From: Patescibacteria group bacterium
Lineage (GTDB): Bacteria; Patescibacteriota; Minisyncoccia; Minisyncoccales; UBA10102
Reading direction: 5' to 3'
NCBI GenBank assembly: GCA_022563395.1
Contig: JADFNM010000001.1
Location: forward strand, 270,342 to 334,341
Length of the DNA stretch: 64,000 nucleotides
Positions 5,467-61,362 of this stretch are shown here, piece by piece; position 1 is the stretch's first letter; the number at the start of each line of letters is the position of its first letter. The notes below the pieces were generated by a model. That model was not told the origin of the DNA. It saw only the letters and a program-made list of their open reading frames with translations, and did no database searches. A program made the position numbers and the translations under genes.

Positions 5467-5471
5467 AGTAC

Positions 5472-6875: not shown

Positions 6876-6883
6876 TCTTCAAT

Positions 6884-6958: not shown

Positions 6959-7089
6959 CTTATGGTCCTACTGCACATATTCTCCAAGTCTCCTATCTCA
7001 GGTCAACAAAAGACAAAGATAAAAAAAAGAGGAAGTAGTCAATTAAGTGACTACCCCCTCATGAAAATCCCGAAGGATTCCCTTTAAAC

Positions 7090-7989: not shown

Positions 7990-8185
7990 TTCACTACCTC
8001 CATATTATTGTGACTTCTCCGTCAGTCTCTCGTCGCCAACCCCTTCATGAGATATCGTGCCTTCCTTTCTCCCTTTCCATAGAATCAGGATTTTTCATTC
8101 TTACTACCGGCTCTCTCCAGTAAGAATATTGTTAATGTACTTTGTGAGCCGATGAAGAGAGGTATGATCTCCCTTCATCGACACA

Positions 8186-8223
8186 TAAAAACCCGCCTTT
8201 CTGGCTTATCCAAGAAGGCGGGT
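8186..8223 (-). terminator. intrinsic terminator inside the dapA upstream leader
   Basis: Minus strand ACCCGCCTT-N15-AAGGCGGGT followed by TTTTT. Confidence 0.65.
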
Positions 8224-8249
8224 TCAAATGGCTTTATCTATCTAATGGA

Positions 8250-8333
8250 TTACAGCTTTTGCCAAGCGAAAATACGCGCCTTCTTGAAGGGCTTCTTCGC
8301 TTTTTTCTCGTCTATCATAAACAAATGCAACAT
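8250..8333 (-). CDS. candidate Lys-rich mini-ORF (27 aa, or 22 aa from the ATG at 8318)
   Basis: Hand translation MLHLFMIDEKKAKKPFKKARIFAWQKL*. Lies between a TTGACA-containing promoter-like stretch and the terminator at 8186-8223. Confidence 0.2.
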   Translation of the reverse strand: MLHLFMIDEKKAKKPFKKARIFAWQKL

Positions 8334-8374
8334 ATACTTTAATGTATAAGAAGAAGCTCAGGGTGTCAAGCACA

Positions 8375-8403
8375 CTTGAGTCCGGCTTCATATATTGTGG
8401 GAC
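8375..8403 (-). repeat. family-A module, copy 7 (distal box only)
   Basis: CTTGAGTCCGGCTTCATATATTGTGGGAC, just after the DUF3179 stop. Confidence 0.8.
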
Positions 8404-8429
8404 ACTACTCCCCCCCTACAAGATAACGT

Positions 8430-9500
8430 TCATTCCTCTTCGTAGATCAATGTATCTTTGTACCCAGCAAACCAAGCAAACCAGAATGTAGAACTTGAAG
8501 GTATTGATATTTGTTCTCCATCTTTAATTAAGAACACTTGAGCAGAACGTCCTGCTATATCTCCAATAATTTCAAACTCTTGTCCACTCACTATATCTCT
8601 GATCACTTTTCCCTGAACTATTTTCACTGGATATGCCTTTGATATCCCATCAATTGTAATTCCCACCACTTGATCCTTGGGTAGTAATCTGTTGTCCTGA
8701 ATACTAACAGGAAATCCGGGTTGCGAATCTGGATTTTCATATGCTCTATATGGATCACTAAGATAATTTCTTGTATATCCGGTATCAAGCGAGAGTACCT
8801 TGGTATCCTCGTGCAAAGCTCGCCACTCTTTCCACAACATCATCGTGGAAGGAAGTATAGAAAGCCGTTGTCCTTTTAAAGATCCGGTAAGAGCTTCACC
8901 AGTAATTTGGTACCAATAACTCTCAGTTTCTCTATCATACATTACCATGGCACTCTCATATAAAGCTCCTGTATTACCAAATGAAAGCAGCTGCTCATTA
9001 AGGTACCGGTCAAATACAATACCAGAGTTGCACAATGGGCAATACGTAATTACTATTTTCCGTCCTCCAATTGTCTCGTTCACAATCTCATGCCAATTCA
9101 TAATCTTAATCGGGTAAGCTCTTGCATCTCCAGCAAATTCTACGCCTAAAACAATATCGTCATTTTGAATCCATCTTTCTGCTTCCAAACTACTTTCGTA
9201 CTCTGGAGAATTAAGCGGTGGAATAGCGTCTCTGGGGACATCTTGAATAATGGGGATTATAGTGTCTTTACGCTGCGCATCCTCTCTGGATGGAATTACT
9301 TTCTCCGCCTTATTTGTGTAAATAAACATAAAAATGCTCAGTCCTATACCAAGCAAAGCAAGGAGCAGAACCAATAGAATCCCTAATATATGAACCAATT
9401 TTTGCCATTTTTCTACATAGCGGGATTCTTTTCCCCCTTTTCGCTCAAACAGTTTTTGTTGTTGTTCGGTAAACATTTGCTTTAACAAAAATCTTGACAT
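8430..9500 (-). CDS. DUF3179 family protein with N-terminal TM helix
   Basis: DDIVLGVEFAGDARAYPIKIMNWHEIVNE...ITYCPLCNSG...SYWYQITGEA matches my recollection of DUF3179 conserved blocks. Confidence 0.6.
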   Translation of the reverse strand: MSRFLLKQMFTEQQQKLFERKGGKESRYVEKWQKLVHILGILLVLLLALLGIGLSIFMFIYTNKAEKVIPSREDAQRKDTIIPIIQDVPRDAIPPLNSPEYESSLEAERWIQNDDIVLGVEFAGDARAYPIKIMNWHEIVNETIGGRKIVITYCPLCNSGIVFDRYLNEQLLSFGNTGALYESAMVMYDRETESYWYQITGEALTGSLKGQRLSILPSTMMLWKEWRALHEDTKVLSLDTGYTRNYLSDPYRAYENPDSQPGFPVSIQDNRLLPKDQVVGITIDGISKAYPVKIVQGKVIRDIVSGQEFEIIGDIAGRSAQVFLIKDGEQISIPSSSTFWFAWFAGYKDTLIYEEE

Positions 9501-9507
9501 CTTTACC

Positions 9508-9582
9508 CTATCAAAAAACCGCCTTTTTGGCGACTTTGAGTCCCCTCTATACGCTTGAGTCCGGCTTCATATATTGTAAGAC
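9508..9582 (-). repeat. family-A module, copy 8 (long form, closest to consensus)
   Basis: Fills the gap between the phosphatase stop (9582) and the DUF3179 ATG (9500). Confidence 0.9.
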
Positions 9583-10214
9583 TAGAGCTCTCCTAAATGA
9601 GCGTAATCGTTCCAAGTGACAAGTTTCCAGTTCTCTTCACCATCTTCCAAGTGAAAAACAGTGATGCCAGTATTTGTGGTACGCACATCGAAAGACTCTA
9701 CATCTCCAAAAGGAAGAGACTCCGGGCCAAAGAGCACCACGCTCAGCATCATCTTTAAGGGAAGACTATGCATAACAACAAGGATGTTGTCTTTTGAACC
9801 CTTTTTCATTTCCTCCAAAAACTGAACTATCCTATCTCGCAACTCACCGATAGATTCCTCATCCTGCCATTTCCAGTAGAGGTCATCTTTGTGTAAAACA
9901 AGCTTGTTGTGAAATTCTTTTGCTTTCTTACCATCAATAGAAATATCCAAAAGGGACGATGGTTTACCCCACTCGTTCACGAGCTCTGTTATGTGAATAG
10001 AGAGCTTGAGCTTTTCATTGATGATTTCGGCTGTCTCCTGCGCTCTTTTAAGCGAACTCGAATACAGTATATCTATTGGTATATGCTCAAACCTCTTTTG
10101 GAGAATATATGCCTGCTCTCTTCCCTCTTTAGAAAGAGAGGTTTCTTTTCTTTGATAAATACGTTTATCATTTGCTTCACTTTTGCCGTGGCGCACAAGA
10201 TACAGTGTTTTCAT
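9582..10214 (-). CDS. histidine phosphatase (phosphoglycerate mutase family)
   Basis: RHG catalytic motif (LVRHGKSEAN) and a downstream H in VVMHSLPL. Confidence 0.8.
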   Translation of the reverse strand: MKTLYLVRHGKSEANDKRIYQRKETSLSKEGREQAYILQKRFEHIPIDILYSSSLKRAQETAEIINEKLKLSIHITELVNEWGKPSSLLDISIDGKKAKEFHNKLVLHKDDLYWKWQDEESIGELRDRIVQFLEEMKKGSKDNILVVMHSLPLKMMLSVVLFGPESLPFGDVESFDVRTTNTGITVFHLEDGEENWKLVTWNDYAHLGEL

Positions 10215-10217
10215 ATT

Positions 10218-10251
10218 CCTATCGTAACAAAAAACCGCCTTTTTGGCGATC
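10218..10251 (-). repeat. family-A module, copy 9 (hairpin part only)
   Basis: CCTATCGTAACAAAAAACCGCCTTTTTGGCGATC, 4 nt upstream of the phosphatase ATG. Confidence 0.85.
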
Positions 10252-10326
10252 TATTGGCCCTGGAAGACCTTTCGACAGACTCAGGGCGGGGGCCAGGCAT
10301 TTCTCGCTCCCTCATTCACCCTTTTT

Positions 10327-10376
10327 GCCTAAATCTCGTTTAAGCATTCTTCGCTGTTGCCTAAACGAGATTTAGG
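10327..10376. repeat. family-B nested palindrome (inverted pair)
   Basis: GCCTAAATCTCGTTTAAGC-N13-GCCTAAACGAGATTTAGG, followed by GGATAACT. Confidence 0.9.
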
Positions 10377-10395
10377 TGTGGATAACTCAGGAAAA

Positions 10396-10477
10396 CCAAA
10401 AAAACCGCCTCCTTGGCGACTTTGAGTCCGGCTTCATATATTGGACGTAATTTGGTCCCCTTTTATACACCTGAGAC
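10396..10477 (-). repeat. family-A module, copy 10 (sub-boxes in permuted order)
   Basis: Hairpin plus distal box are fused, and the GGTCCCCTTTTATACACCTGAGAC box sits on the other side. Confidence 0.8.
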
Positions 10478-10568
10478 TTTAATATCGCCCTATTTTATCT
10501 ACGCATCGTGAACAACGCTAAACCTGTTGTTGGGCATTAAATATCTAATGTTCCATCTATAGGATTAA

Positions 10569-10769
10569 CTAAAGTCCTAAGCTATCAAGGTTAAGGCTGC
10601 TTAAAAATATTGGTATGACAATAATAAGTCCCAGGATGGGCAAAACAATCATCGCAGCAGTTATAACAAGAGTTAAAAGGAAATACTTCCTTGTTTTTTC
10701 AACCGAGGAATAAATTGCATCGATCTTTTTTTCTAGCACTTCAAACTTGTTGGAAATTTCTTGATCCAT
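10569..10769 (-). CDS. small membrane protein (66 aa)
   Basis: One long hydrophobic helix. Family-A module directly upstream. Confidence 0.4.
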   Translation of the reverse strand: MDQEISNKFEVLEKKIDAIYSSVEKTRKYFLLTLVITAAMIVLPILGLIIVIPIFLSSLNLDSLGL

Positions 10770-10778
10770 ATTTTAATT

Positions 10779-10854
10779 CTACACAAAAACCGCTATTTTA
10801 GCAACTTGAAGTTCTTCTTTATACACTTAAGTCCGGCCTCATATATTCTCCGAC
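10779..10854 (-). repeat. family-A module, copy 11 (long form, diverged)
   Basis: Minus strand reads TTGCTA, 17-nt spacer, TAGAAT, ending 8 nt before the ATG at 10769. Confidence 0.8.
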
Positions 10855-10858
10855 TCTC

Positions 10859-11386
10859 CTATCGCATCCTCTTAATATACTCATCTCGGCTGATCAGTTT
10901 TCTCATATCAGTTACTTTATCAAGATAGACAACTCCATTAAGATGGTCCATCTCATGCTGAATTACTCTAGCAAGCAAACCACTAGCTCGCAGGGTAAAA
11001 ATCTCTCCATCGCCATTTTGAGCCTTTATCACTATGCCCTTTGACCGCCTCACTGGACCGAACAACTGGCCAGACGCAACGCTTCCACATCCCTCATGCC
11101 CAACACTCTGATCTTTTGAGAAAGAGACAATGCGAGGATTTATATAGACCCGAAGAGAATCTGTTTCCTGGAGTTTTCTCGTTTTCGTCTTTCGTAGCTC
11201 AGTTACAAAGACTCGAAGACTCACCCCAATCTGCGGAGCAGCCATGCCAACAAGCCCATGGAAACGCATAGAGTCAGTCAAATCCTTAACAACCTTTATA
11301 ACCGTCTTTGAAGAAACTCTACCTACTCTCTGCGATTTCTTGCGAATAATGGAGCTCCCTATTTGTGTAGCTTTTCGTTTAACCAT
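10859..11386 (-). CDS. def: peptide deformylase
   Basis: Motifs GMAAPQIG, EGCGS, QHEMDHLNG. Confidence 0.88.
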   Translation of the reverse strand: MVKRKATQIGSSIIRKKSQRVGRVSSKTVIKVVKDLTDSMRFHGLVGMAAPQIGVSLRVFVTELRKTKTRKLQETDSLRVYINPRIVSFSKDQSVGHEGCGSVASGQLFGPVRRSKGIVIKAQNGDGEIFTLRASGLLARVIQHEMDHLNGVVYLDKVTDMRKLISRDEYIKRMR

Positions 11387-11398
11387 ACCTTCTCTAAT

Positions 11399-11426
11399 CT
11401 ATCAAAAAATCGCCTATCTGGCGATC
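11399..11426 (-). repeat. family-A module, copy 12 (hairpin part only)
   Basis: CTATCAAAAAATCGCCTATCTGGCGATC, upstream of def. Confidence 0.85.
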
Positions 11427-11437
11427 TCTTAAGTTTT

Positions 11438-11487
11438 GCTTAAATCTCGTTTAAGCACAAACCCATATTGCTTAAACGAGATTTAGG
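11438..11487. repeat. family-B nested palindrome (inverted pair)
   Basis: GCTTAAATCTCGTTTAAGC-N13-GCTTAAACGAGATTTAGG, followed by GGATAACT and CTAAATGGAATTTAG. Confidence 0.9.
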
Positions 11488-11517
11488 CGGGGATAACTAA
11501 ATGGAATTTAGGTTTCC

Positions 11518-12771
11518 TTAGCGAAATCTGCTCTGCCGCCTGCCAAATCCTGTATGTCGCTGCCTAGACCCGCTACGTCCACGCCCTCTCTGCTGGGGCC
11601 GGGAAGGCCTCTCTACTGCCCGCGACTTGGGAGCGGCCAAAATACCCTCCGGGAGAGGTAAAGCGAGGATTCGCTTTTGGATTGCTCGCTCTATGGCACG
11701 AACCTCTTTCCCTTCGCTCACCATAGCAAAAGTAATGGCGTGTCCCTTGGTGCCGGCTCTCGCCGTGCGCCCGATGCGATGAACGTAGTCATCTGAAGTA
11801 CCTGGCAAATCATAGTTCAAGACCAGCTCAATGCCCATAACGTCAATGCCTCTTGAAGCAATGTCGGTCGCCACGAGCACACGGTATTTCCCGGACTTGA
11901 ATCCGTCTAACGCCTCCCTTCTTTGGTTCAAACTCCTGTTGGAATGCAACTCTGAGGCCCGTATGCCAAGATCCCGTATCTGGCGCGCCACTTTCTTTGC
12001 TCCATACTTTGTTCTGGTAAACACAAGAGTTGGGCCCTTGTAGCTTTCAAGCAGTCGTTTTAAAAGTTCTGGCTTCTGCTCTCTCGCAACCACGAAAAGC
12101 TCTTGTGAAACCTCTTCTAGGGTTGTGCCGGGCGGGGCAATCTCTACCCGTAGCGGAGTTTTCATATAGTCTGTTGCCAGCTTCATTATCTCGGGGGGCA
12201 TGGTGGCACAAAACAGCATGGTCTGGCGCTCTTTGGGAAGGGCCTTAAGAATGGTTCGAATCTGGGGAAGAAAGCCCATATCAAACATACGGTCCGCCTC
12301 GTCAAGCACCACTATGGAAACGCTGGACAAAGAAAGGGTTTTTTGCAAAAGATGGTCGTTAATTCTTCCCGGTGTTCCAACGATAATGTGCGGCTTACGG
12401 GAGATATCACGGCGCTGTCGTCCAAAGGGAAGTCCGCCAATGAGCACGGCGGTTTTAAGACCCTGCTGTTGTCCCACCTTTTTTAGAAACGCTTCTACCT
12501 GAAGCGCAAGCTCTCGCGTAGGCAGCACCACCAACCCCTGTCTCTTTGTGCCAAGGAGCATTTGTATCATGGGAATGCCAAAAGCAAGGGTCTTTCCGGT
12601 TCCCGTCTGGGCTATGCCTACCAGGTCTTTTCCCTGAATCCCAAGAGGGATGGTACGAACCTGGATAGGGGTGGGTCTGGTGAATCCAGTCCGCTTGAGT
12701 ACCTCTAGGAGACCGGGCGCTATGCCCAATCCATAGAAGTTCTGTTCTCTGTTTTCTGAAGATTCCTGCAT
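11518..12771 (-). CDS. DEAD-box ATP-dependent RNA helicase with Arg-rich C-terminal tail
   Basis: Q-motif/TPIQ, AQTGTGKT, DEAD, HRIGRTARAG. GC-rich. ATG at 12771 preferred over the GTG at 12822. Confidence 0.9.
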   Translation of the reverse strand: MQESSENREQNFYGLGIAPGLLEVLKRTGFTRPTPIQVRTIPLGIQGKDLVGIAQTGTGKTLAFGIPMIQMLLGTKRQGLVVLPTRELALQVEAFLKKVGQQQGLKTAVLIGGLPFGRQRRDISRKPHIIVGTPGRINDHLLQKTLSLSSVSIVVLDEADRMFDMGFLPQIRTILKALPKERQTMLFCATMPPEIMKLATDYMKTPLRVEIAPPGTTLEEVSQELFVVAREQKPELLKRLLESYKGPTLVFTRTKYGAKKVARQIRDLGIRASELHSNRSLNQRREALDGFKSGKYRVLVATDIASRGIDVMGIELVLNYDLPGTSDDYVHRIGRTARAGTKGHAITFAMVSEGKEVRAIERAIQKRILALPLPEGILAAPKSRAVERPSRPQQRGRGRSGSRQRHTGFGRRQSRFR

Positions 12772-12923
12772 AAGAAAAGCCCTGGACGCGCTTGCCAGGG
12801 CACACGTTAGTATAGTATACACTCTTTTTAAGATACTGCAACCTTAAAAATTACAAACTGAATGCTAAAAGCGGCAAAAATCTCAAGTGATGCTGGGCTC
12901 GGTTTAGTTTTCCCCACGCATTT

Positions 12924-13796
12924 CTACCGGGCCACATCCCCGCCGGTAATAAAAATAATCTCGCCCGTCATGTAACTGGAGTCAGCTTCGGAGGCCAGGT
13001 ATACATAGGCCGGAGCCATTTCGTCTGGCTGGCCCGGACGACCCATGGGATTATACTTGCCAAAGTGCACAATATCCTCTTCTGATGAGTCTTTAATAGT
13101 TTGCAAGGGCGTCCAAACTGGCCCTGGAGCAACACAGTTCACGCGAATACCGCGCGGCAAGAGCTCTTTTGCAAGGGTTTTGGTTAAAGTATGCGTTGCA
13201 GCTTTGGTTCCAGAATATATCGGGTAGCCACCTCCACGCGATCCCACTATTGACCCCGTGTTTATGATACATGTACCTTCTTTCATATGTTTGAGTGCAG
13301 CGCGGGTCATGTAATAGTAGCTGAATACGTTCACTTGGTACATGCGTTCCAGCTCTTTGTCCGAGAACTTCTCAATATCGTCTGCAGGGGACATGGTAGC
13401 CACGTTGTTGACAAGGATATCCAGAGAGCCAAACTCCTGCACGGTCTTGTCTACGGCCTTCTGGCAGAAGGCGCTATCTGAAACATCACCCTCAAGGCAC
13501 AGGCACTTTTTGCCCAACTTTTCAATCTCTTGCGTAAGTATCTCTGCGTCCCGGCTTTCTACAGGCAGATACGTAATGGCAACATTTGCGCCCTCTCTGG
13601 CAAACAAAAAGGCAACTGCACGGCCAATTCCTGAATCCCCACCCGTGATGAGAGCGGTTTTCTTAAGAAGCTTGCCAGAGGGTTTGTACTCTTTTCCCTG
13701 ATACTGCGGCAAGGGCTTCATGTCTGCCTCTATCCCAGGGGGTTCTTGGTGCTGGGGTGGAAAAGGCGGGATTGGTCTTTTTGACTCAGACGCCAT
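12924..13796 (-). CDS. SDR family oxidoreductase (YghA / general-stress-protein-39-like)
   Basis: TGGDSGIGRA cofactor motif and YSGTK catalytic motif. Confidence 0.85.
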   Translation of the reverse strand: MASESKRPIPPFPPQHQEPPGIEADMKPLPQYQGKEYKPSGKLLKKTALITGGDSGIGRAVAFLFAREGANVAITYLPVESRDAEILTQEIEKLGKKCLCLEGDVSDSAFCQKAVDKTVQEFGSLDILVNNVATMSPADDIEKFSDKELERMYQVNVFSYYYMTRAALKHMKEGTCIINTGSIVGSRGGGYPIYSGTKAATHTLTKTLAKELLPRGIRVNCVAPGPVWTPLQTIKDSSEEDIVHFGKYNPMGRPGQPDEMAPAYVYLASEADSSYMTGEIIFITGGDVAR

Positions 13797-13799
13797 ACA

Positions 13800-13991
13800 T
13801 TACAGATGTTTCTTGATTAACCCGGTGAGCTCTTGAATGTGGTCTTCTTTATCCTTTTCCATCTTTTCCCAGAAGGCGTTGCAGTTTTCGCACTTCCCCG
13901 CGTCGCGCTTGTACACATCTTTGATGCGCCACAGACTTTTGTGCTCCACCACCAGCTGATTCATCAAGTTATACGTATGATTGTCAAACAT
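13800..13991 (-). CDS. small hypothetical protein (63 aa)
   Basis: ORF starts 3 nt downstream of the SDR gene. No family recognised. Confidence 0.4.
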   Translation of the reverse strand: MFDNHTYNLMNQLVVEHKSLWRIKDVYKRDAGKCENCNAFWEKMEKDKEDHIQELTGLIKKHL

Positions 13992-14048
13992 AGGGGCAAA
14001 ATACTCTATTAGACTTCTTTTTAAAACAACCTTTACTCATTTTAAAGT

Positions 14049-14103
14049 ATATCAAAAAACCGCCCGTTTGGCGATTTAAGTCCACGCTCATATATTGTAG
14101 GGC
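14049..14103 (-). repeat. family-A module, copy 13 (short form)
   Basis: TATATCAAAAAACCGCCCGTTTGGCGATTTAAGTCCACGCTCATATATTGTAGGGC. Confidence 0.85.
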
Positions 14104-14110
14104 TCATCCC

Positions 14111-15220
14111 CTAGCCAAAGGTGAAGGTGAAAAACTCAAGATTTAAAGAAGGAACAAGAAGTTCTAAGGTATGGGTACCATATTCCTCTTTTGTATCTAC
14201 AAGATTATACAAACTTGCACCCTGAACTTTCAAAAAAGAAGCGGTGCCCTGAAAAACAATATCCTCTCCCTTGTTCTTTTCAGTAAGATATTCCCCGTCT
14301 AGCTTCACTTCGGCCAGAATGTCTGCTTCTCCTTTTGTATCCAACACAAGATTCAGCTTATTTGCCTTGTAGCGAATAAGAACTTTCCCCTCCCCCTCTA
14401 CCAGTTGCGCAAACTCTGGGGCAATGCGCCAGGTTCCCACAAGATAAAAACGATTAAACTCTACTGCCTGGGGTTCTTTAAACTCGTGGGGTTCATTCAC
14501 TTGAACTGCCTCAATTGGGTTCCCGATGTTGTTAATACGAGAAGCTCCAAAGTATATCTCTGGAGTTCCAATGCTCTTAAAATCAACGCCTGCAGGGGGT
14601 TCTGTAACCTTGGTAATCTTGTCTAAAGAAAGGAGGCCTGCCTCAAGCAACAGCTGTTGTATTGCAGCCTCGGTCTCTGCATATTGCCCTTCCCCAAAAT
14701 GGGTGTAACGAATGTTCCCTTTTGCGTCAATTAAATAGAGTGCAGGCCAAAATCTATTCTCAAAAGCATTCCAGGTTGCATAGTTATTATCGAGGGCCAC
14801 GGGATACTCAACGCCGTACTCTTTCACATTCCTTCTTACATTCCCCTCATCCTCTTCAAACTCAAACTCCGGGGTATGCACCCCAAGAACAACAAGACCG
14901 TTATCTTTGTATTTTTCATGGAACGCTTCGATATGGGGGATGTTGCGAATACAGTTAATACAGGTATACGTCCAAAAATCCACCAGCACAACCTTGCCTT
15001 GAAGCTCCTTTAGTACAAGGGGTTCAGAATTCATCCAAGAGGTAAGGCCAACGAACTCTGGAGCTTTTTTAAGAATAGGCAACTCTTCGGAAGAACCCAG
15101 AAGATTCCTTATCTCCTCCAAGACAGGCTCACGGGAGGTAAGGAACTCTTGATCTCCAAGTATGGCGTACCCGACTGCAAAAATGACGATAGCAAGAAGA
15201 ACAAAAGTAATGAGTTTCAT
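14111..15220 (-). CDS. thioredoxin-like thiol-disulfide oxidoreductase (DipZ C-terminal-like), secreted or anchored
   Basis: N-terminal TM/signal, VVLVDFWTYTCINC (CxxC) redoxin motif, extra C-terminal beta-rich domain. Confidence 0.75.
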   Translation of the reverse strand: MKLITFVLLAIVIFAVGYAILGDQEFLTSREPVLEEIRNLLGSSEELPILKKAPEFVGLTSWMNSEPLVLKELQGKVVLVDFWTYTCINCIRNIPHIEAFHEKYKDNGLVVLGVHTPEFEFEEDEGNVRRNVKEYGVEYPVALDNNYATWNAFENRFWPALYLIDAKGNIRYTHFGEGQYAETEAAIQQLLLEAGLLSLDKITKVTEPPAGVDFKSIGTPEIYFGASRINNIGNPIEAVQVNEPHEFKEPQAVEFNRFYLVGTWRIAPEFAQLVEGEGKVLIRYKANKLNLVLDTKGEADILAEVKLDGEYLTEKNKGEDIVFQGTASFLKVQGASLYNLVDTKEEYGTHTLELLVPSLNLEFFTFTFG

Positions 15221-15229
15221 GGATATACT

Positions 15230-15258
15230 TTATCAGAAAACCACTTTCCTGGCGATTC
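15230..15258 (-). repeat. family-A module, copy 14 (hairpin part, diverged)
   Basis: TTATCAGAAAACCACTTTCCTGGCGATTC, 10 nt upstream of the redoxin ATG. Confidence 0.7.
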
Positions 15259-15338
15259 TTTTCATACTTCTCTGCTCTAATCTGAAAAGAAAACAGGACG
15301 TTTTTGCATCCTGTTTTCTTAAGCCAAAACTCCAAGCG

Positions 15339-28062: not shown

Positions 28063-28134
28063 TGCCCCCAGCAGGACTCGAACCTGCAACCAATGGCTTA
28101 AAAGGCCACTGCTCTTCCATTGAGCTATGGGGGC
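28063..28134 (-). tRNA. tRNA-Lys (anticodon UUU)
   Basis: Hand-folded cloverleaf: acceptor GCCCCCA/TGGGGGC, anticodon loop CTTTTAA, T-loop GGTTCGAGTCC. Confidence 0.9.
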
Positions 28135-28245
28135 AAAAGCAAACTGCTTTGCTTTTGCCGGGAAACCTACCTTGATTTGCCATGTCGCCGTTGAGGCGAC
28201 GGCATAACAAGGGTTTCCCCGGGTCCGCCGGAGGCGGATACATTA

Positions 28246-28300
28246 CTCAACTGCTTGAGTTTTTGCGGGGCCAGAGTCAACTGCTTGACTCTGGCGGGCG
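28246..28300. repeat. family-C GC-rich hairpin element (intergenic copy)
   Basis: CTCAACTGCTTGAG and CAGAGTCAACTGCTTGACTCTG hairpins. 28265-28300 is 35/36 identical to 48011-48046 inside rpoD. Confidence 0.85.
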
Positions 28301-28414
28301 TTCTAGCAATTTAGTCCTTAAATTGCGTTAAGGAATGCCCAGGGCCCTCAATTGAATTCGTCCTCAACTAAATCAAGGAATCCTTGGTTTCACCAAGGAC
28401 GTAATGAGTATACT

Positions 28415-34932: not shown

Positions 34933-36153
34933 GAGAAACTGGATAATAGTGTTTACTTCTTTTTCTGAAATGCGAATGTGCGTGGGGAGGTTAAGCGTAG
35001 TCTTGGCAAGTTCCTCTGCCTTAGGACAGCTCCCCCACTCGTATCCCATCTTCTCTATTTGAGTATCATAAGGAGCTATGGGAGTCGTGTACCAATCTCC
35101 CAAAAGCAGATTTTGCCGCCATGCCCTTTTGATGATCTCGTGGGCCTTTACATGCCGCAAGGGAAATCGAAGGTAAATATTTCCTTCCTGGTATTTCGTA
35201 TCTAGTATTTGGTATTGAGTATGAGATAGGGCTTGAACATATTTTTGAGCAATCTGTCTTCGGTGTTCATTGAAACGTTCCAGTTTTCTCAATTGTTTTC
35301 TTGCCAAAAGCGCCAGCGCATTGGGGAGTGCCTTGGGGAAATATCCTGGTTTCTCGCCCCTTTTCTCTTTTTTGTGGACTGCCTTAGAAAGAACATGGAG
35401 GTATTGGGCAATACGAAGCGTGTACTTGCCTCCAATTCCATACAGAGGCAGAATCCTCCAGTTCATGATAACTGGATGAAGCAACTGCTGAAAAATCCAA
35501 AGTAAAAAAGGATACCCAACTTTTTTCTGAAACTCCCTCATACTCTCTGCAAGCGGAGCATCGTTTGTGACAACCATTCCTCCATACACAGAAGAAATCA
35601 CCTTATCTCTTGAGAAACTGAAAAAAGAAGCTTTCCCAAACGTGCCAACTTTTCTACCTTTGTATTCTGCCCCCAGGGCATGGGCACAATCTTCCAGGAG
35701 AACAAGGTTGTGTTTGCTACAAATTTCTTGAATCTTGTCCATATCAGCTGGCGCGCCAAAGGTATGCTGCACCAACACTGCCTTTGTGTGTGGGGTAATC
35801 TTTTTTTTAAGATCCTCAGGAGACATGTTGTAGTCCTCTTTACAGTCAACGTACACGGGTTTCAAACCGGACCAAAGTATAGGATTGGGTACTGCATTGC
35901 AGGTGAAAGCTTGAATAAGAATTTCGTCTCCTTTTTTAAGCCCCAAAGATTCTAAGATAGCAAGAAAGGCAGACCTGCCACTGTTAAATGCAAACGCATA
36001 TTCCACCCCCAAATACTCCCGAAACTCCTCCTCCAAAAGGGGGGTCTGACCCCCCTTTTGCCATCTCCACGGCTGAAATAACAACGCGAAAGCAGCCAGA
36101 ATATCATCTGTCTCAGTATTGGGAGACAAGGAAATGGAAATGGGGCGAATCAT
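34918..36153 (-). CDS. DegT/DnrJ/EryC1/StrS family PLP aminotransferase
   Basis: FSFSRDKVIS PLP-lysine region. The C-terminal LNEI* is encoded by a family-B repeat arm. Confidence 0.8.
   Translation of the reverse strand: MIRPISISLSPNTETDDILAAFALLFQPWRWQKGGQTPLLEEEFREYLGVEYAFAFNSGRSAFLAILESLGLKKGDEILIQAFTCNAVPNPILWSGLKPVYVDCKEDYNMSPEDLKKKITPHTKAVLVQHTFGAPADMDKIQEICSKHNLVLLEDCAHALGAEYKGRKVGTFGKASFFSFSRDKVISSVYGGMVVTNDAPLAESMREFQKKVGYPFLLWIFQQLLHPVIMNWRILPLYGIGGKYTLRIAQYLHVLSKAVHKKEKRGEKPGYFPKALPNALALLARKQLRKLERFNEHRRQIAQKYVQALSHTQYQILDTKYQEGNIYLRFPLRHVKAHEIIKRAWRQNLLLGDWYTTPIAPYDTQIEKMGYEWGSCPKAEELAKTTLNLPTHIRISEKEVNTIIQFLLNEI
36035..36059. repeat. perfect 25-bp palindrome inside the DegT-like CDS
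   Basis: AAAAGGGGGGTC-T-GACCCCCCTTTT. Encodes ..QKGGQTPLL.. Confidence 0.9.
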
Positions 36154-41755: not shown

Positions 41756-41847
41756 ATTATTAATATATGCCGGTGCGGTTTTATACGGCTCCGCAGGAGC
41801 TCCGCCTAAACCGCCCGTAAAAGTAAAGCAGTTTACTTTTACCCATA

Positions 41848-44836: not shown

Positions 44837-44864
44837 CAAAAAAAACCGCCTAATTGACAATTCT
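44837..44864 (-). repeat. family-A module, copy 15 (degenerate)
   Basis: ACAAAAAAAACCGCCTAATTGACAATTC, upstream of mreC. Confidence 0.5.
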
Positions 44865-44925
44865 TTGTTTTGAGATAAACGGATATCTCCTAAATGAAAT
44901 TTAGGAACCATTGGCTTCAATGAAT

Positions 44926-45981: not shown

Positions 45982-46380
45982 CTAATCTCTTCTCAAAATC
46001 TTGAACTCCTTGAATCCAGTGTTCTCATCGAGCTCTCGAGAAAACTTATGCTTTTCTGACTCCCCAATAACTACCTCTGCTGTAGTATGCAAAACACATC
46101 CTTCTTTAAGGTGTCCTCCTATCGTGTTCCCTTTCTTATCTCCCAAACCAATATGTAGGTGCATCCCATCCTGCGAAAGGGTGCCTACTAAAGAGATGAT
46201 TTCAAACTTCTCATCCCATGTTCTAATCTCATTCTCATCTGCAAGCCTAAGCGTTGCCTTCTTCAAGCTTCCAACGCACGTTAGAATGAAACCTGCCTGA
46301 ATGTTGTTTTCCGCAACAAACTTCTTGAGCTCTTCTCTAAGATCCTGGCCTGGTTGAAGTCGAAAGATATGAGTTTTCAT
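45982..46380 (-). CDS. PPC domain (DUF296) protein
   Basis: FRLQPGQDLREEL...FILTCVGSLKKATLR is typical of PPC/DUF296. Confidence 0.7.
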   Translation of the reverse strand: MKTHIFRLQPGQDLREELKKFVAENNIQAGFILTCVGSLKKATLRLADENEIRTWDEKFEIISLVGTLSQDGMHLHIGLGDKKGNTIGGHLKEGCVLHTTAEVVIGESEKHKFSRELDENTGFKEFKILRRD

Positions 46381-46389
46381 ATGCTCACT

Positions 46390-46418
46390 CTACCAAAGAA
46401 CCGCCAGATTGGCGATTC
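46390..46418 (-). repeat. family-A module, copy 16 (hairpin part only)
   Basis: CTACCAAAGAACCGCCAGATTGGCGATTC, 10 nt upstream of the PPC-domain ATG. Confidence 0.75.
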
Positions 46419-46430
46419 TTTTTCTCCATA

Positions 46431-46847: not shown

Positions 46848-48212
46848 TTAATAACCGCGGAGTTTTTTTAAAGACCGGTGGTCCCGGATTTTCTCTAGAG
46901 ATTTAGCCTCAATCTGGCGGATGCGCTCTCTTGTAACGCCAAATTCACTTCCCACTTCTTCTAGGGTGTGGGTAATTCCATCATCCAGGCCAAAGCGCAT
47001 AGCAAGAATCTTTTGTTCTCGTGGGGTAAGATCAATTAAGATTTCTTTTAAGCGCTCTTTTAAAAGATTTCTTGATGCTTCCACAGAAGGAGGTGGAACC
47101 TTTTCGTCTTCCACAAACTCAGCCAGCACGCTGTCTTCATCATCCTTTCCTACGGGAGTTTCCAAAGACACGGTTTCCTGAGAAATCCTTTGAATCTGGT
47201 GAATCTTCTCTATCTGAAGCCCCATCTCGGCTGCAACCTCCTCTGCTAAAGGCTCCCTTCCCAAATCCTGCAGCAAGCGCCTTCTTACCTGGGTGTACTT
47301 TGAGATGGTTTCAATCATGTGCACGGGAATACGAATGGTCCGCGCCTGGTCAGCTAGAGCTCTGGTAATGGCTTGCCTAATCCACCAGGTAGCGTATGTT
47401 GAAAACTTGTATCCCCGCCTCCAGTCAAACTTCTCTACCGCACGAAACAACCCGAGATTTCCCTCTTGGATCAAGTCCAGCAGGGTAAGGTTTGGGGAGC
47501 GACCTACATATCTCTTTGCAATAGAAACCACGAGGCGGAGATTTGCCCGTGCCAACTGCTTTTTTGCCTCAATGTCTCCTTTTTCAATGCGCTTTGCAAG
47601 CTCTTTTTCTTGCTCTGCTGTTACAAAAGGAATTTTGCCGATTTCTTTTAAGTACATCTGCACCGAGTCTAAAGGAGCTTCTGCTTCCACCCTTTTCTTT
47701 TCTACCTCTTCTTTTTGAGGCACACTCAGGTATTCTCTTACCTCTTCCACCCGAATACCAGACTCCTCTAACCTTTCGTACAAGGCCTCCAGAGCAGGAA
47801 CCTTCTTTTCAATGCCGGGGAAAGCGTACAAGATTTCAGAATACGTTACAAACCCCCGGGGCTGTCCTCTTTCAAAAAGTTCCTGGAGGAGATCCTCTGA
47901 AAACAAGGCTCTTTCCCCCTTCCTTCCTCTGCCCTGCTTTTTCGTTTGCCTGAAGTGTGGGCGGATAAACGTTCGCTTTGTGGGGCGAGGAACCAACTGC
48001 TTGGTTCCTCGCGGGGTCAGAGTCAACTGCTTGACTCTGGCGGGCGATTTAGCGAGGCGTCTCTGCCAAGCGTTAGAAATCGCCCTGGGCTTGCGGCGAG
48101 AGGTCATAGAGCGCCCCGGGTCTAATTTTTTCTTCTTCTTTCTTGTCGGCTTACGCCTCTTTTGCGTACCCGCCGGCGTAACGGGCCTTTTTGCTTTCTG
48201 TTTTCTTGCCAT
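46848..48212 (-). CDS. rpoD: RNA polymerase sigma factor RpoD with ~110 aa basic N-terminal extension
   Basis: Regions 1.2-4.2 ([44 protein letters not shown]). 3 nt downstream of dnaG. Confidence 0.95.
47986..48046. repeat. family-C GC-rich hairpin element inside the rpoD coding sequence
   Basis: CGAGGAACCAACTGCTTGGTTCCTCG and CAGAGTCAACTGCTTGACTCTG hairpins. Near-identical to 28265-28300. Confidence 0.85.
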
Positions 48213-56485: not shown

Positions 56486-59344
56486 TCAAAGAACCCTGCC
56501 CGTGTAGCTCTTTTTCACTCTTGCTACTTCCTTGGGAGTGCCCTCTGCAACAAGCTCGCCTCCTTTTTCTCCGCCTTCCGGTCCTAAATCCAAAATCCAG
56601 TCTGCATTACGCACCAAATCCAAATTATGCTCAATAACCAGCACGGTGTTTCCTTTATCTACAAGTTCTCCTAAAACCTGCAAGAGTTTTTTTACGTCGT
56701 CAAAATGCAACCCGGTGGTTGGCTCATCTAATATGTACAAGGTCTTTCCTGTTGCTTTCTTTGCAAGCTCTGTTGCCAGCTTTACCCGCTGTGCTTCCCC
56801 GCCAGACAAAGAGGGGGCCGGCTGTCCCAACTCAATATACGAGAGACCAACATCATGTAAGGTTTTTAACTTTGCTGCGAGCGATGGAATGTTCTTGAAA
56901 AACGCCAAGGCTTCCTCTACGGTCATCTCAAGTACCTCTGCAATATTCTTTCCCTTATACTGTACCTCCAGCACTTCTTTCATGTACCTTTTTCCCTGAC
57001 ACTCCTCACACTCAACATACACATCAGGCAAAAAGTACATCTCAATCTTTTTTAACCCTTGGCCTTCACAACTCTCACATCTTCCCCCCTTCACGTTAAA
57101 AGAAAATCTGCCCAAAGCATAGCCCCTTACCCTGGCCTCTCTTGTTCCGGCAAACAAATCACGTACGACAGAGAAAGCTCCGGTATAGGTTGCGGGGTTA
57201 GAGCGCGGCGTTCTTCCAATGGGCGACTGGTCCACCAACACCACCTTATTTACATACTCAATGCCTTCAATTGCTTTGTGTGCTCCCGGCTCTTCTTTTG
57301 CCTTGTAGAACTTTTGGAGCAGGGCTTTTGCCAAAATGTCGTTTATCAAAGAACTCTTCCCAGAACCAGAAACTCCGGTCACGCACACCAACTTTCCCAA
57401 AGGTATTTTTACGTCAATGTTTTTTAAGTTGTTGTGGGAAGCTCCCTTTATTGTAAGGAAATGCTGAGTGGGGTGCTGAGCGGGGTCAGACCCCGCTCTG
57501 CCTTGAAGGGGGGGTCTGACCCCGCTTTGCCTCAACATCGTGACTGTTTTTCTCCCCGCAAGATAATCACCAGTAAGGGTGCGAGATTTCTTCAGTTTTG
57601 CAGGAGTACCCGTAAATGTAACACGGCCTCCGTGCTTTCCAGCTCCGGGGCCAATGTCTATCACCCAGTCAGCAGAGCGGATGGTTTGGGGATCGTGCTC
57701 TACCACTACAATGGTGTTGCCCAATGTGCGCAATTTCTGCAATATTGCAATCAACCTGTATTGGTCTCTTGCATGCAGACCAACCGATGGTTCATCTAAT
57801 ATGTATAAGACTCCGGCGAGCTTAGAACCAATCTGGGTTGCAAGCCGTATTCTCTGCTCTTCTCCCCCAGACAAGGTTCCTGCCTTTCTTGCTAGGGTCA
57901 AATATTCCAACCCAACGTCAATCAAAAACTGAAGTCTATTCAACACTTCTTTTATTATGGGTTGGGCTATCTTCTTTTCGTACTCTTTTAAAGAGAGCTT
58001 GGAGAAAAACTCTTTGGTGTGATTAAGCTGAAGGTTCACTACTTGGTGGATGGATTTTGAGCCAACCGTCACTGCCAAGACCTCTGGCTTTAATCTCTTT
58101 CCTTGGCACTTGACGCAAATCTTCTCAACCATATACTGCTCAATTTCTTCCCTTGCATATTCAGAATCGGTTTCATGGTATCTCCTCTCTAGCCAAGGAA
58201 TCACACCCTCAAACCCCGCACCAGAAGCTTCGCTTCGGTGCGGGGCGGGATCTCCGTAGAGTATTAAATCAATCGCTTTTTTGGGTAAATCCTTAACTGG
58301 ACTATCCAAAGAAAACTTGCGCTCTTTTGCCAAATCCTCCAGTTTCCACCAAAAGAATCCCTGCCTCCCTATCCTATGGGAAGCATGGGCCCAGGGGAAA
58401 ATAGCGCCTTCTGCAATGGAGAGCCGGGGATTGGGAATGACCAGTTTTGGATCAACCTCCAACTTCTCTCCCAACCCTTGGCAGGCAGGGCATGCTCCAA
58501 AAGGAGAATTGAAAGAAAAGACCCTGGGCTCAATCTCTGGCAAAGAGATACCGCAATCCTCGCAGGCAAACCGCTCTGAAAAAACAAGGTCAACATCATT
58601 TTGATTTTTTGCTTTTGATTTTTGACTTATCATCACCATGCCCTTTCCAAGCTTTAACGCGGTCTCTAAAGAATCAACAAGCCGGGGGCGGTCCAAATCA
58701 TTTTCCATGGTCAACCTATCTACTACAACTTCAATGGAATGTTTCTTTTTGCGGTCCAACTCTTTTTCCAGGGCTTCTTCAATGCGGTATACGATACCGT
58801 CAATCCGAACTCGCACAAACCCGGAACGCTGAATCTCTTCTAAAATGCCTTGATGCTCACCCTTTCTTTCTCTTATCACAGGACCTAAAATGGCAACCTC
58901 GGTATCTTTGGGAAGTTTTTGCACCTGCAGCGCAATGTGAGAAACAGATTGCCTGGAAACTACCTTGCCGCAATTTGGGCAATGGGGTATGCCAATCCGC
59001 GCAAACAAAAGACGGAGATAATCATAAATCTCCGTAATGGTTCCAACCGTAGACCTTGGATTGTGCGCCCCTTTTCTCTGGTCAATGGCAATGGCAGGAG
59101 AAATGCCTTCAATGCTGTCTACGTCGGGTTTTTGCATGATACCCAGAAACTGGCGGGCGTATGCACTCAAACTTTCTACATACCTTCTTTGTCCTTCAGC
59201 ATATAAGGTATCAAAGGCAAGAGAGCTTTTCCCAGAACCAGAAAGCCCGGTAATAACCACAAGCTTCCCCTTTGGGATGTCAACGTCAATGTTTTTTAGA
59301 TTATGGACTCTTGCTCCCCTAATTTTAATGAGATCTTGCGCCAT
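56486..59344 (-). CDS. uvrA: excinuclease ABC subunit A
   Basis: Two ABC modules ([18 protein letters not shown]) and zinc fingers. ATG at 59344 preferred over the GTG at 59362. Confidence 0.96.
57478..57526. repeat. two GGGGTC-N-GACCCC palindromes inside the uvrA CDS
   Basis: GAGCGGGGTC-A-GACCCCGCTC (57478-57498) and GGGGGGGTCTGACCCCGCT (57508-57526), preceded by the tandem GCTGAGYGGGG. Confidence 0.9.
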
Positions 59345-59484
59345 GTCGGTGCAATTATACACTCATTATCAAATCATTTCAAGAGATGAATGGGGAACCT
59401 GCAATTATTGACAAAGAGAGAAATATATGATATGAAAAATTCTAGCTCACGGCCAAAAAAATCAGTCAGCAGACGGAGGATACG

Positions 59485-59773: not shown

Positions 59774-61261
59774 ATGGAGAAGTTTCGATATATTCTAAAA
59801 GCAAAACTCTCAATACTTCCCAAGGCACCCGGTGTCTATGCTTTGTCGTCTCCCAAAACAATCTTATATATAGGAAAGGCAGCCAACATCAAAGACCGGG
59901 TCAAAAACCACTTTGCAAAAATCATCTACAAAGACAACCTCTTCATTAAAGACGTAACCAGGGTTGGATATATCAAAACAGACTCAGATATTGATGCTTT
60001 GCTGCTGGAATCAAAACTCATTAAAACAAAGCAGCCAAAGTATAATGTCATGTGGAAAGACGACAAGAAGTACTTCTATGTCGCAATAACTAAAGAAAAC
60101 TTTCCACGAGTATTTCTCACTCATCAACCCACAGGTTCCGCTACGGGAGCATCCACCGTCGCTTCGCGCGCCATACCCACGGCCCCTCCCGAGCTTCGCT
60201 CCGTCGGACGCTCCCTCCGCCAGGGCATAGACTATATTGGTCCTTTTACCGAAGGAAAGGCAATTAAGCGAGTGCTAAGATTGTTAAGAAGAGTATTCCC
60301 CTATTACACGGCAAAAAAGCATGGGACTCTTCTTTGTCAGTACTGTCATTTGAATCTATGCCCAGGCCCCACCCCTAACAAAAAAGCATACAAAAAGAAC
60401 ATACGCAATCTTGTTGCTGTTCTTTTAGGAAAGAAAACCTCGGTGTTGAAACAACTAAAAAAAGATATGGAGAGCGCGGCAAAGAACCAGGATTTTGAAA
60501 AGGCGGCAGGATTAAGAGACCAGTTTCTTTCTTTAGAACACATCATTTCCCATGCACGGCTTCTTTCTCCCGAGGTTTCGCCTTCCCTTAACTGGACCAT
60601 GATAGAAAAAGAACTGCAAAAGCTCTTTTTGACCAAAAAGAGAATTACCCGCATTGAGGCATACGACATCTCCAACATTCAGGGTAAGGAGGCAACGGGT
60701 TCCCAGATTACCTTTCTTAAAGGAGTTCCTGCAAAGGAGTACTATAAAAAATACAAGATTCGATTGGTACATAATAAGAGCCGGGGCATTGCTAAACGCT
60801 CGACAGGGACGCCTCGCTACAATGCCCGTCGGAACCAAGCAGTTGGCTCCGACCCAAATGATTTCGCCATGATGAAAGAACTTCTTGAAAGGCGCCTTCG
60901 GCATCCAGAGTGGCCCTACCCCCAGCTCATGGTTATTGACGGCGGCAAGGGCCAACTCACCTCAGTTCTCAAAGCCATTTCAAACTTAATCTCGTCAAAT
61001 TATCCCCAACCCTTCGGGTCTGAAAACCCTTCAGGGTCTGAACGACTTAGTTTAACTAAGTTACGAGGTATTAAAATCGTAGCTTTGGCAAAGAGACAGA
61101 ATGAACTGTTCTTTCCAAAAAAGCCAAAGTCAGTATTACTCCGAGATCTGCCAAGACCGCTGGAAAACTTATTCTTGCACATTCGAGATGAGGCACACCG
61201 CTTTGCCATTAAATATCACCGTACCCTACGCTCAAAAAACCTATTCTTGAGGTCCTCTTAA
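59774..61261 (+). CDS. uvrC: excinuclease ABC subunit C, lacking the C-terminal (HhH)2 region and carrying three in-frame insertions
   Basis: GIY-YIG (VYALSS...ILYIGKAANIKDRV), UVR domain (FEKAAGLRDQ), endonuclease domain (IDGGKGQL, LAKR, EAHRFAI). Confidence 0.9.
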   Translation: MEKFRYILKAKLSILPKAPGVYALSSPKTILYIGKAANIKDRVKNHFAKIIYKDNLFIKDVTRVGYIKTDSDIDALLLESKLIKTKQPKYNVMWKDDKKYFYVAITKENFPRVFLTHQPTGSATGASTVASRAIPTAPPELRSVGRSLRQGIDYIGPFTEGKAIKRVLRLLRRVFPYYTAKKHGTLLCQYCHLNLCPGPTPNKKAYKKNIRNLVAVLLGKKTSVLKQLKKDMESAAKNQDFEKAAGLRDQFLSLEHIISHARLLSPEVSPSLNWTMIEKELQKLFLTKKRITRIEAYDISNIQGKEATGSQITFLKGVPAKEYYKKYKIRLVHNKSRGIAKRSTGTPRYNARRNQAVGSDPNDFAMMKELLERRLRHPEWPYPQLMVIDGGKGQLTSVLKAISNLISSNYPQPFGSENPSGSERLSLTKLRGIKIVALAKRQNELFFPKKPKSVLLRDLPRPLENLFLHIRDEAHRFAIKYHRTLRSKNLFLRSS

Positions 61262-61271
61262 ATGAGGTCCT

Positions 61272-61313
61272 CTTAAATCTCGTTTAAGCATGTATGCTTA
61301 AACGAGATTTAGG
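61272..61313. repeat. family-B nested palindrome (inverted pair)
   Basis: CTTAAATCTCGTTTAAGCAT-GT-ATGCTTAAACGAGATTTAGG, just after the uvrC stop. Confidence 0.9.
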
Positions 61314-61362
61314 CATTATCTGTATTATTGACGAAACGAGAGAATACCTATATACTAAGGTA

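Follow-up and report, generated by a model that had tools for sequence, protein, structure and literature searches.

In-frame palindromic repeats in essential genes are best known from Rickettsia. Rickettsia palindromic elements (RPEs) are short non-coding repeats that occur both between genes and, in frame, inside housekeeping genes, where they look like insertions relative to orthologues. They add surface-loop peptides without destroying the protein and are patchily distributed among orthologues; their mode of movement is not established. In yeast mitochondrial DNA (mtDNA), GC-rich palindromic clusters are mobile in an AT-richer genome, and one of them lies in frame in VAR1. Yeast mitochondria also contain GC-rich hairpin inserts that ribosomes bypass. 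REP/BIME–RAYT systems and derivatives of IS200/IS605 combine conserved foot or loop bases with variable stems, exist in many copies, lack coding capacity and produce no target duplication. Bacterial MITEs (miniature inverted-repeat transposable elements), such as the Correia elements of Neisseria (PMC10969869), are small and non-autonomous, have inverted-repeat ends, and can be co-transcribed with genes or lie inside them. In Patescibacteria, insertions and introns are known in the rRNA genes (PMC11665869).

Here we describe three segments, further referred to as ins1, ins2 and ins3, of the uvrC gene (59774–61261, plus strand, 495 aa) in a 64-kb stretch of contig JADFNM010000001.1 of a Patescibacteria group bacterium (the window). 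With a probability of about 0.8, judged from sequence comparison, these segments are short non-coding hairpin repeats, of kinds scattered over this genome and those of other Patescibacteria, that landed in uvrC and are in frame, free of stop codons and placed in tolerant loops. The traits listed above for RPEs, for REP/BIME and IS200/IS605 derivatives and for MITEs are shared by the elements considered here, except that inverted-repeat ends are seen in ins1, as imperfect 14-nt arms, and not in ins2. With the yeast mtDNA clusters, they share GC-rich palindromes in an AT-richer genome. The likeness to RPEs, first drawn in an earlier note on this DNA, holds as a statement about how the elements work: the inserts are patchy on the gene tree and are conserved above the level of synonymous sites of the host gene. 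It is a likeness of behavior, and membership in the RPE family itself is unlikely given the host, as RPEs belong to Alphaproteobacteria.

Three in-frame segments of uvrC

The gene was identified using the list of open reading frames, Pfam and named homologues. Its product contains GIY-YIG (PF01541, 1.3e-08, aa 20–91), UVR (PF02151, 1e-10, aa 223–255) and RNase H-like endonuclease (PF08459, 1.5e-31) domains, and the matching PDB entries are the UvrC fragments 1yd6, 3c65 and 2nrt. By this combination of domains the protein is UvrC (excinuclease ABC subunit C). The nearest homologues are 57–82% identical; where names are given, they are UvrC or GIY-YIG nuclease and Candidatus Wildermuthbacteria, Parcubacteria or Patescibacteria. 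Judged by the homologues of UvrC, the source genome is Wildermuthbacteria-like. The length of homologues ranges from 385 to 569 aa among the best 120 matches. The (HhH)2 tail is indeed absent, as had been remarked earlier: the protein ends right after the endonuclease domain, with no HhH Pfam match, and none of the 120 listed homologues has an HhH domain either. Hence the loss of the tail is common to all of these and is nothing peculiar to the window gene; the lineage appears to use a truncated UvrC.

The window UvrC was aligned with 30 orthologues (alignment A1), ten of which were also read at the DNA level. The three segments, originally proposed by comparison with the usual UvrC architecture, all fall at sites whose length varies among close relatives. 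Site 1 lies between FLTHQ and IGPF and spans 27–123 nt in the ten DNA-level orthologues. Site 2 is bounded by KYKI and DFAM; it measures 99 nt in the window but 21 nt in 26 of the 30 orthologues, where the empty site reads KIHITGKPNDF. The length of site 3, which is bounded by GGKGQL and ALAK, varies from 54 to 126 nt. In the ten DNA-level orthologues, the lengths of inserts at all three sites are multiples of three and no insert has an in-frame stop. The match to the C-terminal half of Bacillus UvrC (3c65) is split at query positions 332/359, although residues 55/56 of the chain, to which these positions align, are contiguous; a gap against this chain is also seen in the region of ins3. The inserts were also mapped onto an AlphaFold2 model built on A1, a check suggested earlier: the confidence score (pLDDT) is below 50 at exactly aa 121–150, 333–360 and 412–422, with confidently folded parts on either side, so that all three inserts lie in low-confidence loops. 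The loops affected are the linker after GIY-YIG, a loop of the RNase H-like domain, and the loop following the GGKGQ helix.

The GC content is 71.9% in ins1 (60128–60223), 58.3% in ins2 (60770–60853) and 42.9% in ins3 (60986–61069), compared to 41.3% in the remaining part of uvrC and 45.5% in the window. The first two inserts are thus GC-richer than the gene, and the third is not GC-rich, in line with the original description, and the sequence strings quoted there were all found: CGGAACCAAGCAGTTGGCTCCG at 60830–60851, the 18-nt tandem units at 61010–61027 and 61028–61045, and CTTAGTTTAACTAAG at 61046–61060. Only two 96-nt stretches with the GC content of at least 68% exist in the window, one of them being ins1. 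The other one (11558–11653) belongs to the gene of a DEAD-box helicase (11518–12822, minus strand), whose arginine-rich C-terminal tail it encodes.

The inserts differ from the surrounding gene in the mode of sequence change. Identity at third codon positions between the window uvrC and its orthologues is 0.55–0.66 in the rest of the gene versus 0.87–1.00 in ins1 (against P0001, P0002 and P0009) and 0.96 in ins2; outside the inserts no such peaks extend. For ins2 compared with P0003, one codon differs synonymously and eight non-synonymously; for ins1 compared with P0009, the numbers are zero and four. The rest of uvrC (against P0001, P0003 and P0009) contains approximately 123–133 synonymous and 69–108 non-synonymous codon differences. 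Near-invariant synonymous sites combined with mostly non-synonymous changes point to DNA, rather than protein, as what is constrained or has spread recently. Diversity-generating retroelement repeats were considered and rejected, as no adenine-specific pattern was noticed in the codon alignment (by eye, with no tally).

Short tracts of near-identity also exist outside the inserts. Compared with P0002, tracts at aa 21–40, 176–195 and 459–478 are 96–100% identical including third positions, whereas elsewhere third-position identity is about 66%. This suggests that the tracts are recombination mosaics between related lineages. Further patchy in-frame inserts are seen elsewhere in A1: YTQPHGAGAG in P0001, with near variants in P0010 and P0023; an insert with PPRPEGADEAHSQSE in P0004, P0005 and P0018; PSLRPVLRSTATEGDQGYGG in P0003; and PSTTLRTS in P0010.

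Element families at the three sites

Ins2 (60772–60855, minus strand; aa 333–360) is a full-length copy of an element that we call the family-2 or CUGC-loop element, in antisense orientation to uvrC. Its structured core covers 60781–60855, with a hairpin having the CAACUGCUUG apex at 60828–60853. The ins2 hairpin had been linked to copies in rpoD and between genes, and repeat finding agrees: the stretch 60795–60855 is similar to 48014–48074 in rpoD (61 nt, 80%) and to the intergenic stretch 28268–28307 (40 nt, 78%), and there is an alignment of 76 nt at 79% (E = 4e-11). Scanning of a collection of species-representative genomes with the pattern GCCCG-N7-CAAGCAGTTG-N7-CCC yielded 92 loci. Matches whose N7 arms pair at six or seven positions all come from Patescibacteria except for one GC-rich case, the Planctomycetota contig L058 (6/7 paired), which was taken as chance, as were about 45 unpaired matches in GC-rich genomes. 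The lineages carrying the element include Wildermuth-, Sung-, Terry- and Saccharibacteria and Paceibacterota, with up to seven strict-pattern matches in one metagenome-assembled genome (MAG).

The shared architecture comprises an invariant GGG and an 11-bp hairpin with the invariant CAACUGCUUG apex. The next stem, GGGCGAUUU/AAAUCGCCC, is opened by an invariant CGGGC and has a small UCC-loop hairpin inside it; a third hairpin often comes after this. The 7-bp stems covary. In 38 copies from other genomes, 95.3% of cells of the proposed structure are paired. The covariation score for these copies is 0.51, compared to 0.14 in shuffles and at most 0.10 with slid partners, and two helices not used for the selection of sequences covary as well. 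A covariance model of 84 positions (R1) was built from other genomes, with no window sequences included. It matches ins2 over model positions 1–84 with the score of 85.3 bits (E = 5e-17) and finds five copies in the window. In addition, R1 yields 54 matches in 47 searched sources, namely 44 loci of other Patescibacteria genomes and the loci L001, L008 and L009 fetched via uvrC.

The four other copies in the window (scored by cmsearch) are as follows. One (48014–48097, plus strand, 86.6 bits) lies inside rpoD (46848–48212, minus strand), in frame and antisense, N-terminal to sigma region 1.1 as defined by Pfam. Another (28268–28352, plus strand, 80.4 bits) is intergenic, between dnaJ and a tRNA gene. 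A divergent variant (28131–28231, plus strand, 39.1 bits) shares 4 nt with the 5' end of a tRNA gene (28063–28134, minus strand). The last copy (41761–41844, minus strand, 75.8 bits) is intergenic; the genes on its two sides, PBP2-like and greA, both have its orientation. The whole tRNA-plus-element arrangement of the window, including the 28268–28352 copy, is syntenic with the Wildermuthbacteria genome L078 at 81% identity. Beyond the window, a copy scoring 83.9 bits (minus strand) occupies the same site in uvrC of P0003 (locus L007), and an intergenic one scoring 67.7 bits (plus strand) was found in a relative (L005). At site 2 of P0008 there is a different family-2 member of the same 99-nt length, read in another frame, and P0001 has an in-frame 48-nt internal deletion of ins2.

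The CAACUGCUUG strand is antisense to the gene in both uvrC and rpoD. In family-2 stems there are 23 G.T pairs and 9 A.C pairs, therefore this strand is the folding one. For ins2, the folding energy of this strand is −37.7 kcal/mol (z = −4.2) versus −29.1 kcal/mol (z = −2.2) for the other strand. The family consensus read in the uvrC frame would contain the stop codon TAA; the uvrC copy has TAC, and the paired stem base is changed to match. Rfam 15 searched at the gathering score over the window and 15 element-carrying loci gave tRNAs only, and a search of one element with a relaxed cut-off gave, at best, matches at the chance level (E = 0.12 and 1.3). The identity with tmRNA, SRP RNA or RNase P RNA was rejected as well, given no match in Rfam or ARAGORN.

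Family-2 copies are linked to tRNA genes. At least 16 of 42 copies from other Patescibacteria directly follow a copy of the tRNA 5' end, either 19 nt (up to the D-loop) or 37 nt (up to the anticodon loop) long, and in these cases an intact tRNA gene of the same type lies 0–260 nt downstream on the same strand. The fragment ends at the GG of the D-loop or in the anticodon loop of tRNA-Pro; examples are L018 (1338–1547), L048 (2127–2376), L077 (5115–5332), L084 and L067. The possibility that the element together with the tRNA 5' fragment makes a tRNA-like RNA was rejected, given that the closing D-stem, the T-arm and the acceptor 3' strand are all absent. In uvrC, the element is preceded by ATTTGG on its own strand. 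The flanks hint that targets may be chosen: family 2 is apparently inserted just 3' of a short motif, ..TGG, which resembles the fixed left-flank motif of IS200/IS605 elements. The strand-specific fold and the tRNA link could mean that family 2 moves via single-stranded DNA or RNA by a mechanism that has not been described. A broader proposal, which we put forward tentatively and hold to be possible rather than probable, is that family 2 may be an undescribed structured mobile element present across several Patescibacteria lineages. It would insert 3' of GG, favor D- and anticodon loops of tRNA genes, leaving a 19- or 37-nt tRNA 5' copy upstream of the intact tRNA, and occasionally land in loops of housekeeping proteins; lineage-specific insertions in proteins of these bacteria would then have a general source in this element and its companion families of hairpins.

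Ins1 (60128–60223, minus strand; aa ~119–150) is a GC-rich inverted-repeat element in the linker after GIY-YIG. Its imperfect 14-nt arms, GGGAGCATCCACCG (60145–60158, plus strand) and CGTCGGACGCTCCC (60202–60215, plus strand), pair in the predicted fold, and the core between them contains two GCTTCGC motifs (GCGAAGC on the antisense strand). The folding energy is −42.2 kcal/mol for the minus strand versus −26.3 kcal/mol for the plus strand, the better-folding strand again being antisense to uvrC; compared with shuffled sequences, the fold is not significant on either strand (z = −1.46 and −0.45, respectively). An exact 21-mer of ins1 occurs in a metagenome collection in one more uvrC gene and in a cyclophilin-like reading frame. 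The latter match was treated as chance; the identity of that frame comes from reading its translation and not from Pfam.

The content of site 1 differs among orthologues. In P0004, the site is occupied by the reverse complement of ins1, also in frame: 71 of 82 positions are identical to the window stretch 60141–60222, with a 43-nt identical core, while the sense strands of the two inserts have no similarity. The two orientations encode the unrelated peptides ATGASTVASRAIPTAPPELRS and PKGAGARAKLGRGRGYGARSEGG. P0010, P0011 and P0018 have the inverted form, judged by the common peptide. Another inverted-repeat element is present in P0003 and P0005. A divergent family-2 variant occupies the site in P0008, P0015 and P0048, the P0008 insert being identical at 90 of 109 positions to the reverse complement of the tRNA-adjacent element of the window. 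P0007 has a perfect palindrome, CCTAAACGAGATTTGGGAGCTCCTAAATCTCGTTTAGG, from the commonest intergenic palindrome family of the window; approximately eight further orthologues share this type, again judged by peptide. Finally, P0020 and P0094 have no insert at this site. In total, site 1 contains at least four kinds of elements, or five types if both orientations of one element are counted. The insert types do not track the gene tree: P0004 and P0005 are sister sequences, yet their site-1 inserts are of different types.

Ins3 (60983–61060, plus strand; aa ~404–429) is a nested hairpin element. It consists of a degenerate hairpin AACTTAATCTCGTCAAATT (60983–61001), ATCCCCAA, the two 18-nt units, and the palindrome CTTAGTTTAACTAAG. 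The young core of 12 codons (aa 413–424) is situated inside an older 19-aa segment present in many, although not all, orthologues. In many orthologues site 3 contains two hairpins with the loops TCTC(A/G) and CGAGA and covarying stems, for example, AACTTAAT-CTC-ATTAAGTT ... ACTTAC-CGAGA-GTAAGT. The loops of the flanking hairpins, seen in orthologues and in the L011 copy described below, are of the CGAGA/TCTCG type of the intergenic palindromes of the window; in the window uvrC, both hairpins are degenerate. The cargo between the hairpins comprises two 18-nt units in the window, one in P0001, and none or unrelated GC-rich hairpins elsewhere. A 57-nt part of ins3 including both units is 94.7% identical to positions 7877–7933 of L011, in a 35-codon stop-to-stop stretch with no other similarity to uvrC. 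The terminal hairpin of this copy covaries with that of ins3 (CTTAC..GTAAG vs CTTAG..CTAAG). The uvrC gene of the L011 MAG itself is P0008, 67% identical to the window uvrC.

A pair of palindromes with CGAGA/TCTCG loops, CTTAAATCTCGTTTAAG ... TGCTTAAACGAGATTTAGG (61265–61315, no strand assigned), is located directly 3' of the uvrC stop codon and belongs to the repeat families D9–D13 and I2–I3. The window contains seven perfect hairpins with such loops, compared to 0.16 in shuffles. The same loop type is seen at the base of the site-3 element and in the site-1 insert of P0007. In BLAST of the inserts within the window, ins1 and ins3 gave short chance words only.

Inserts of this kind are not limited to uvrC. 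At 47981–48097, within the N-terminal extension of rpoD, there is, apart from the family-2 copy, an extra in-frame CAACTGCTTG hairpin (47985–48012). In uvrA (56486–59362, minus strand), a 14-aa segment (aa 606–619, ~57490–57531) absent from three orthologues consists of two GGGGTCAGACCCC-type hairpins, and the third copy of this hairpin is at 36036–36058. Window-specific stretches of uvrA are also seen at aa 245–251 and 373–375. In the Paceibacterota MAG JAQULB01 (locus L041, 380–1261), a gene for a PrmC/HemK-like methyltransferase carries an in-frame family-2 copy in the sense orientation (aa 70–97). The same gene has a possible second GC-rich insert, GRACPERAKRVEGY.

One more hairpin, AAAAAACCGCC-N4-5-GGCGA(C/T), occurs in the window in thirteen copies (283–15260, 44840–44865 and 46373–46420), mostly in the first 15 kb. 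Behind many of them there are GAGTCCGGCTTCATATATTG-like boxes, and the hairpins have the look of cassettes, placed between short genes, that combine a terminator with a promoter.

Origin and persistence of the inserts

The elements would be mobilized in trans, possibly by an enzyme recognizing single-stranded hairpins; we infer this because the copies lack coding capacity, target duplication and an adjoining transposase. A copy landing in a gene would persist if its length keeps the frame, it has no in-frame stop, and it falls into a surface loop able to accept extra residues. The inserts are most likely read through as disordered peptide loops. The same loops have been hit repeatedly, site 2 with two members of one family and site 3 with nesting; across orthologues, insertions at the three loops come and go, replace one another, invert and nest. 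Filtering for in-frame, stop-free copies in tolerant loops, and not target specificity, may explain such recurrence. The inserts behave as DNA or RNA elements, and not as protein, with covarying stems, conserved loops and synonymous sites that barely change. Homologous recombination would then shuttle filled and empty alleles between related lineages.

The earlier note had named an observation that would speak against insertion, namely, segments whose protein sequence is conserved throughout the lineage and whose nucleotides do not resemble intergenic repeats. None of the three segments behaves in this way, because ins2 is a member of a dispersed family, ins3 has a non-genic copy, and ins1 is found in both orientations and is replaced in close relatives.

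Several observations weigh against the origin of the segments from dispersed mobile repeats. By inspection of filled and empty sites 1–3, there is no direct repeat of 3 nt or longer at the junctions, that is, no target duplication. Within 2.5 kb of 43 element copies, there is no transposase or other recurrent protein, only syntenic housekeeping genes. A second locus with ins1 was not found in about 870 kb of related DNA, in the exact 21-mer scan of metagenomes, or in peptide searches. In the latter, a HMMER scan of the 33-aa ins1 peptide against 1.84 billion representative proteins gave no match. A doubled 60-aa query against an index of 5.8 billion proteins gave one candidate and none scoring, which reflects the limit of the word index and is not evidence. 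All orthologues are predicted intact proteins, hence the in-frame rule is partly a sampling effect. We infer mobility from the distribution of the copies. Finally, in-situ inversion and exchange of alleles by recombination could explain part of the pattern with no transposition at all; such recombination does occur, given the short mosaic tracts of near-identity elsewhere in uvrC.

The best-surviving alternative agrees with the insertion of dispersed repeats as to the origin of the segments and differs as to their persistence. It states that the hairpins are kept as functional nucleic acid, e.g. as antisense small RNAs, RNA-processing or pausing signals, or protein-binding sites, and are not merely tolerated selfish DNA. 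The nucleotide conservation far above the synonymous-site level is what one would see in this case, and so is the compensated change that keeps the stem in the uvrC copy. The CUGC and UCC loops are conserved, and the stems covary, across Wildermuth-, Sung-, Terry- and Saccharibacteria, among others; the excess of G.T over A.C pairs (23 to 9) indicates that one folding strand is favored, and this strand is antisense in both uvrC and rpoD; many family-2 copies have a tRNA gene just downstream of them on their own strand. In contrast, any given site is without the element in most orthologues, and differences exist even among very close relatives. P0001 has lost an internal part of ins2 in frame, orientation relative to local transcription varies within the window, and ins1 exists in both orientations. 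We consider retention for function rather unlikely.

Much less likely is the removal of the inserts before the mature protein is made, either as intervening sequences cut from the mRNA or as segments skipped by the ribosome. The inserts form stable hairpins, and GC-rich hairpin inserts are bypassed by ribosomes in yeast mitochondria. Insertions and introns in the rRNA genes of Patescibacteria (PMC11665869) are also in favor of this scenario. However, the upkeep of the reading frame counts against it: all inserts at the three sites in the ten orthologues are stop-free multiples of three, the consensus stop codon is mutated in the uvrC copy, and the partial deletion in P0001 is in frame, all of which would be needless if the segments were removed. 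No match to a known ribozyme or intron family was found in Rfam, and the segments are far too short for inteins.

Slightly more improbable still are ordinary lineage-specific expansions of UvrC loops by duplication or slippage, functional at the protein level and similar to repeats by chance. The segments lie at domain linkers, where insertions and deletions are frequent; an 18-nt stretch of ins3 is duplicated locally in tandem; and a second copy of ins1 was not found. On the other hand, this reading is already contradicted for ins2 by its covariance-model match (E = 5e-17) and for ins3 by the presence of its tandem in a non-genic copy elsewhere. The inverted copy of ins1 in P0004, the predominance of non-synonymous changes at nearly invariant synonymous sites, and the low model confidence with no predicted structure in the inserts also speak against it.

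An assembly or binning artefact, e.g. chimeric contigs joined at repeats, is a reasonable concern for a metagenomic source, since repeats can misassemble, but it has almost no chance here, because six contigs, from at least four separate assemblies among the four contigs shown, encode the identical 495-aa protein with the same neighbors (uvrA, secG, RNase J, recA), and orthologues from other studies have the same inserts at the same positions.

Relation to described systems and implications

Compared with RPEs, several much shorter families (~20–110 nt) accumulate in the same loops of UvrC, where they take each other's place and nest, and one element is found in both orientations at one site. 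Family 2 further differs from RPEs by conserved loops and covarying stems across several Patescibacteria lineages and by the link to tRNA genes. REPs are almost always extragenic, whereas the elements considered here are also found in frame in genes; moreover, a REP is a single imperfect palindrome and family 2 is a three-helix 84-nt unit. A Y1/RAYT gene was not found here, although none was sought across the whole genome. Unlike MITEs, the elements have no visible target-site duplication and no known parent insertion sequence, most of them are smaller, and family 2 has internal hairpins and lacks terminal inverted repeats. The yeast mtDNA clusters differ in being organellar and in belonging to other sequence families.

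No description of such elements in Patescibacteria was found in the full-text literature, apart from insertions in rRNA genes; the coverage of this search is incomplete, so that it speaks weakly for novelty. Family 2 and its link to tRNA genes are the likeliest to be new. This family is not in Rfam 15; a covariance model and clues about its target sites are now at hand.

A phenomenon known from Rickettsia would be extended to a phylum that is unrelated and consists of ultrasmall bacteria whose genomes are reduced; several families of elements take part in it, with repeated insertion, replacement, inversion and nesting at the same sites. For the analysis of these genomes, this has practical consequences. 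Inserts far more conserved than their host gene can mislead alignments and tests for recombination, and in structure prediction they show up as low-confidence stretches. Odd insertions in proteins of Patescibacteria may be repeat DNA rather than adaptive features.

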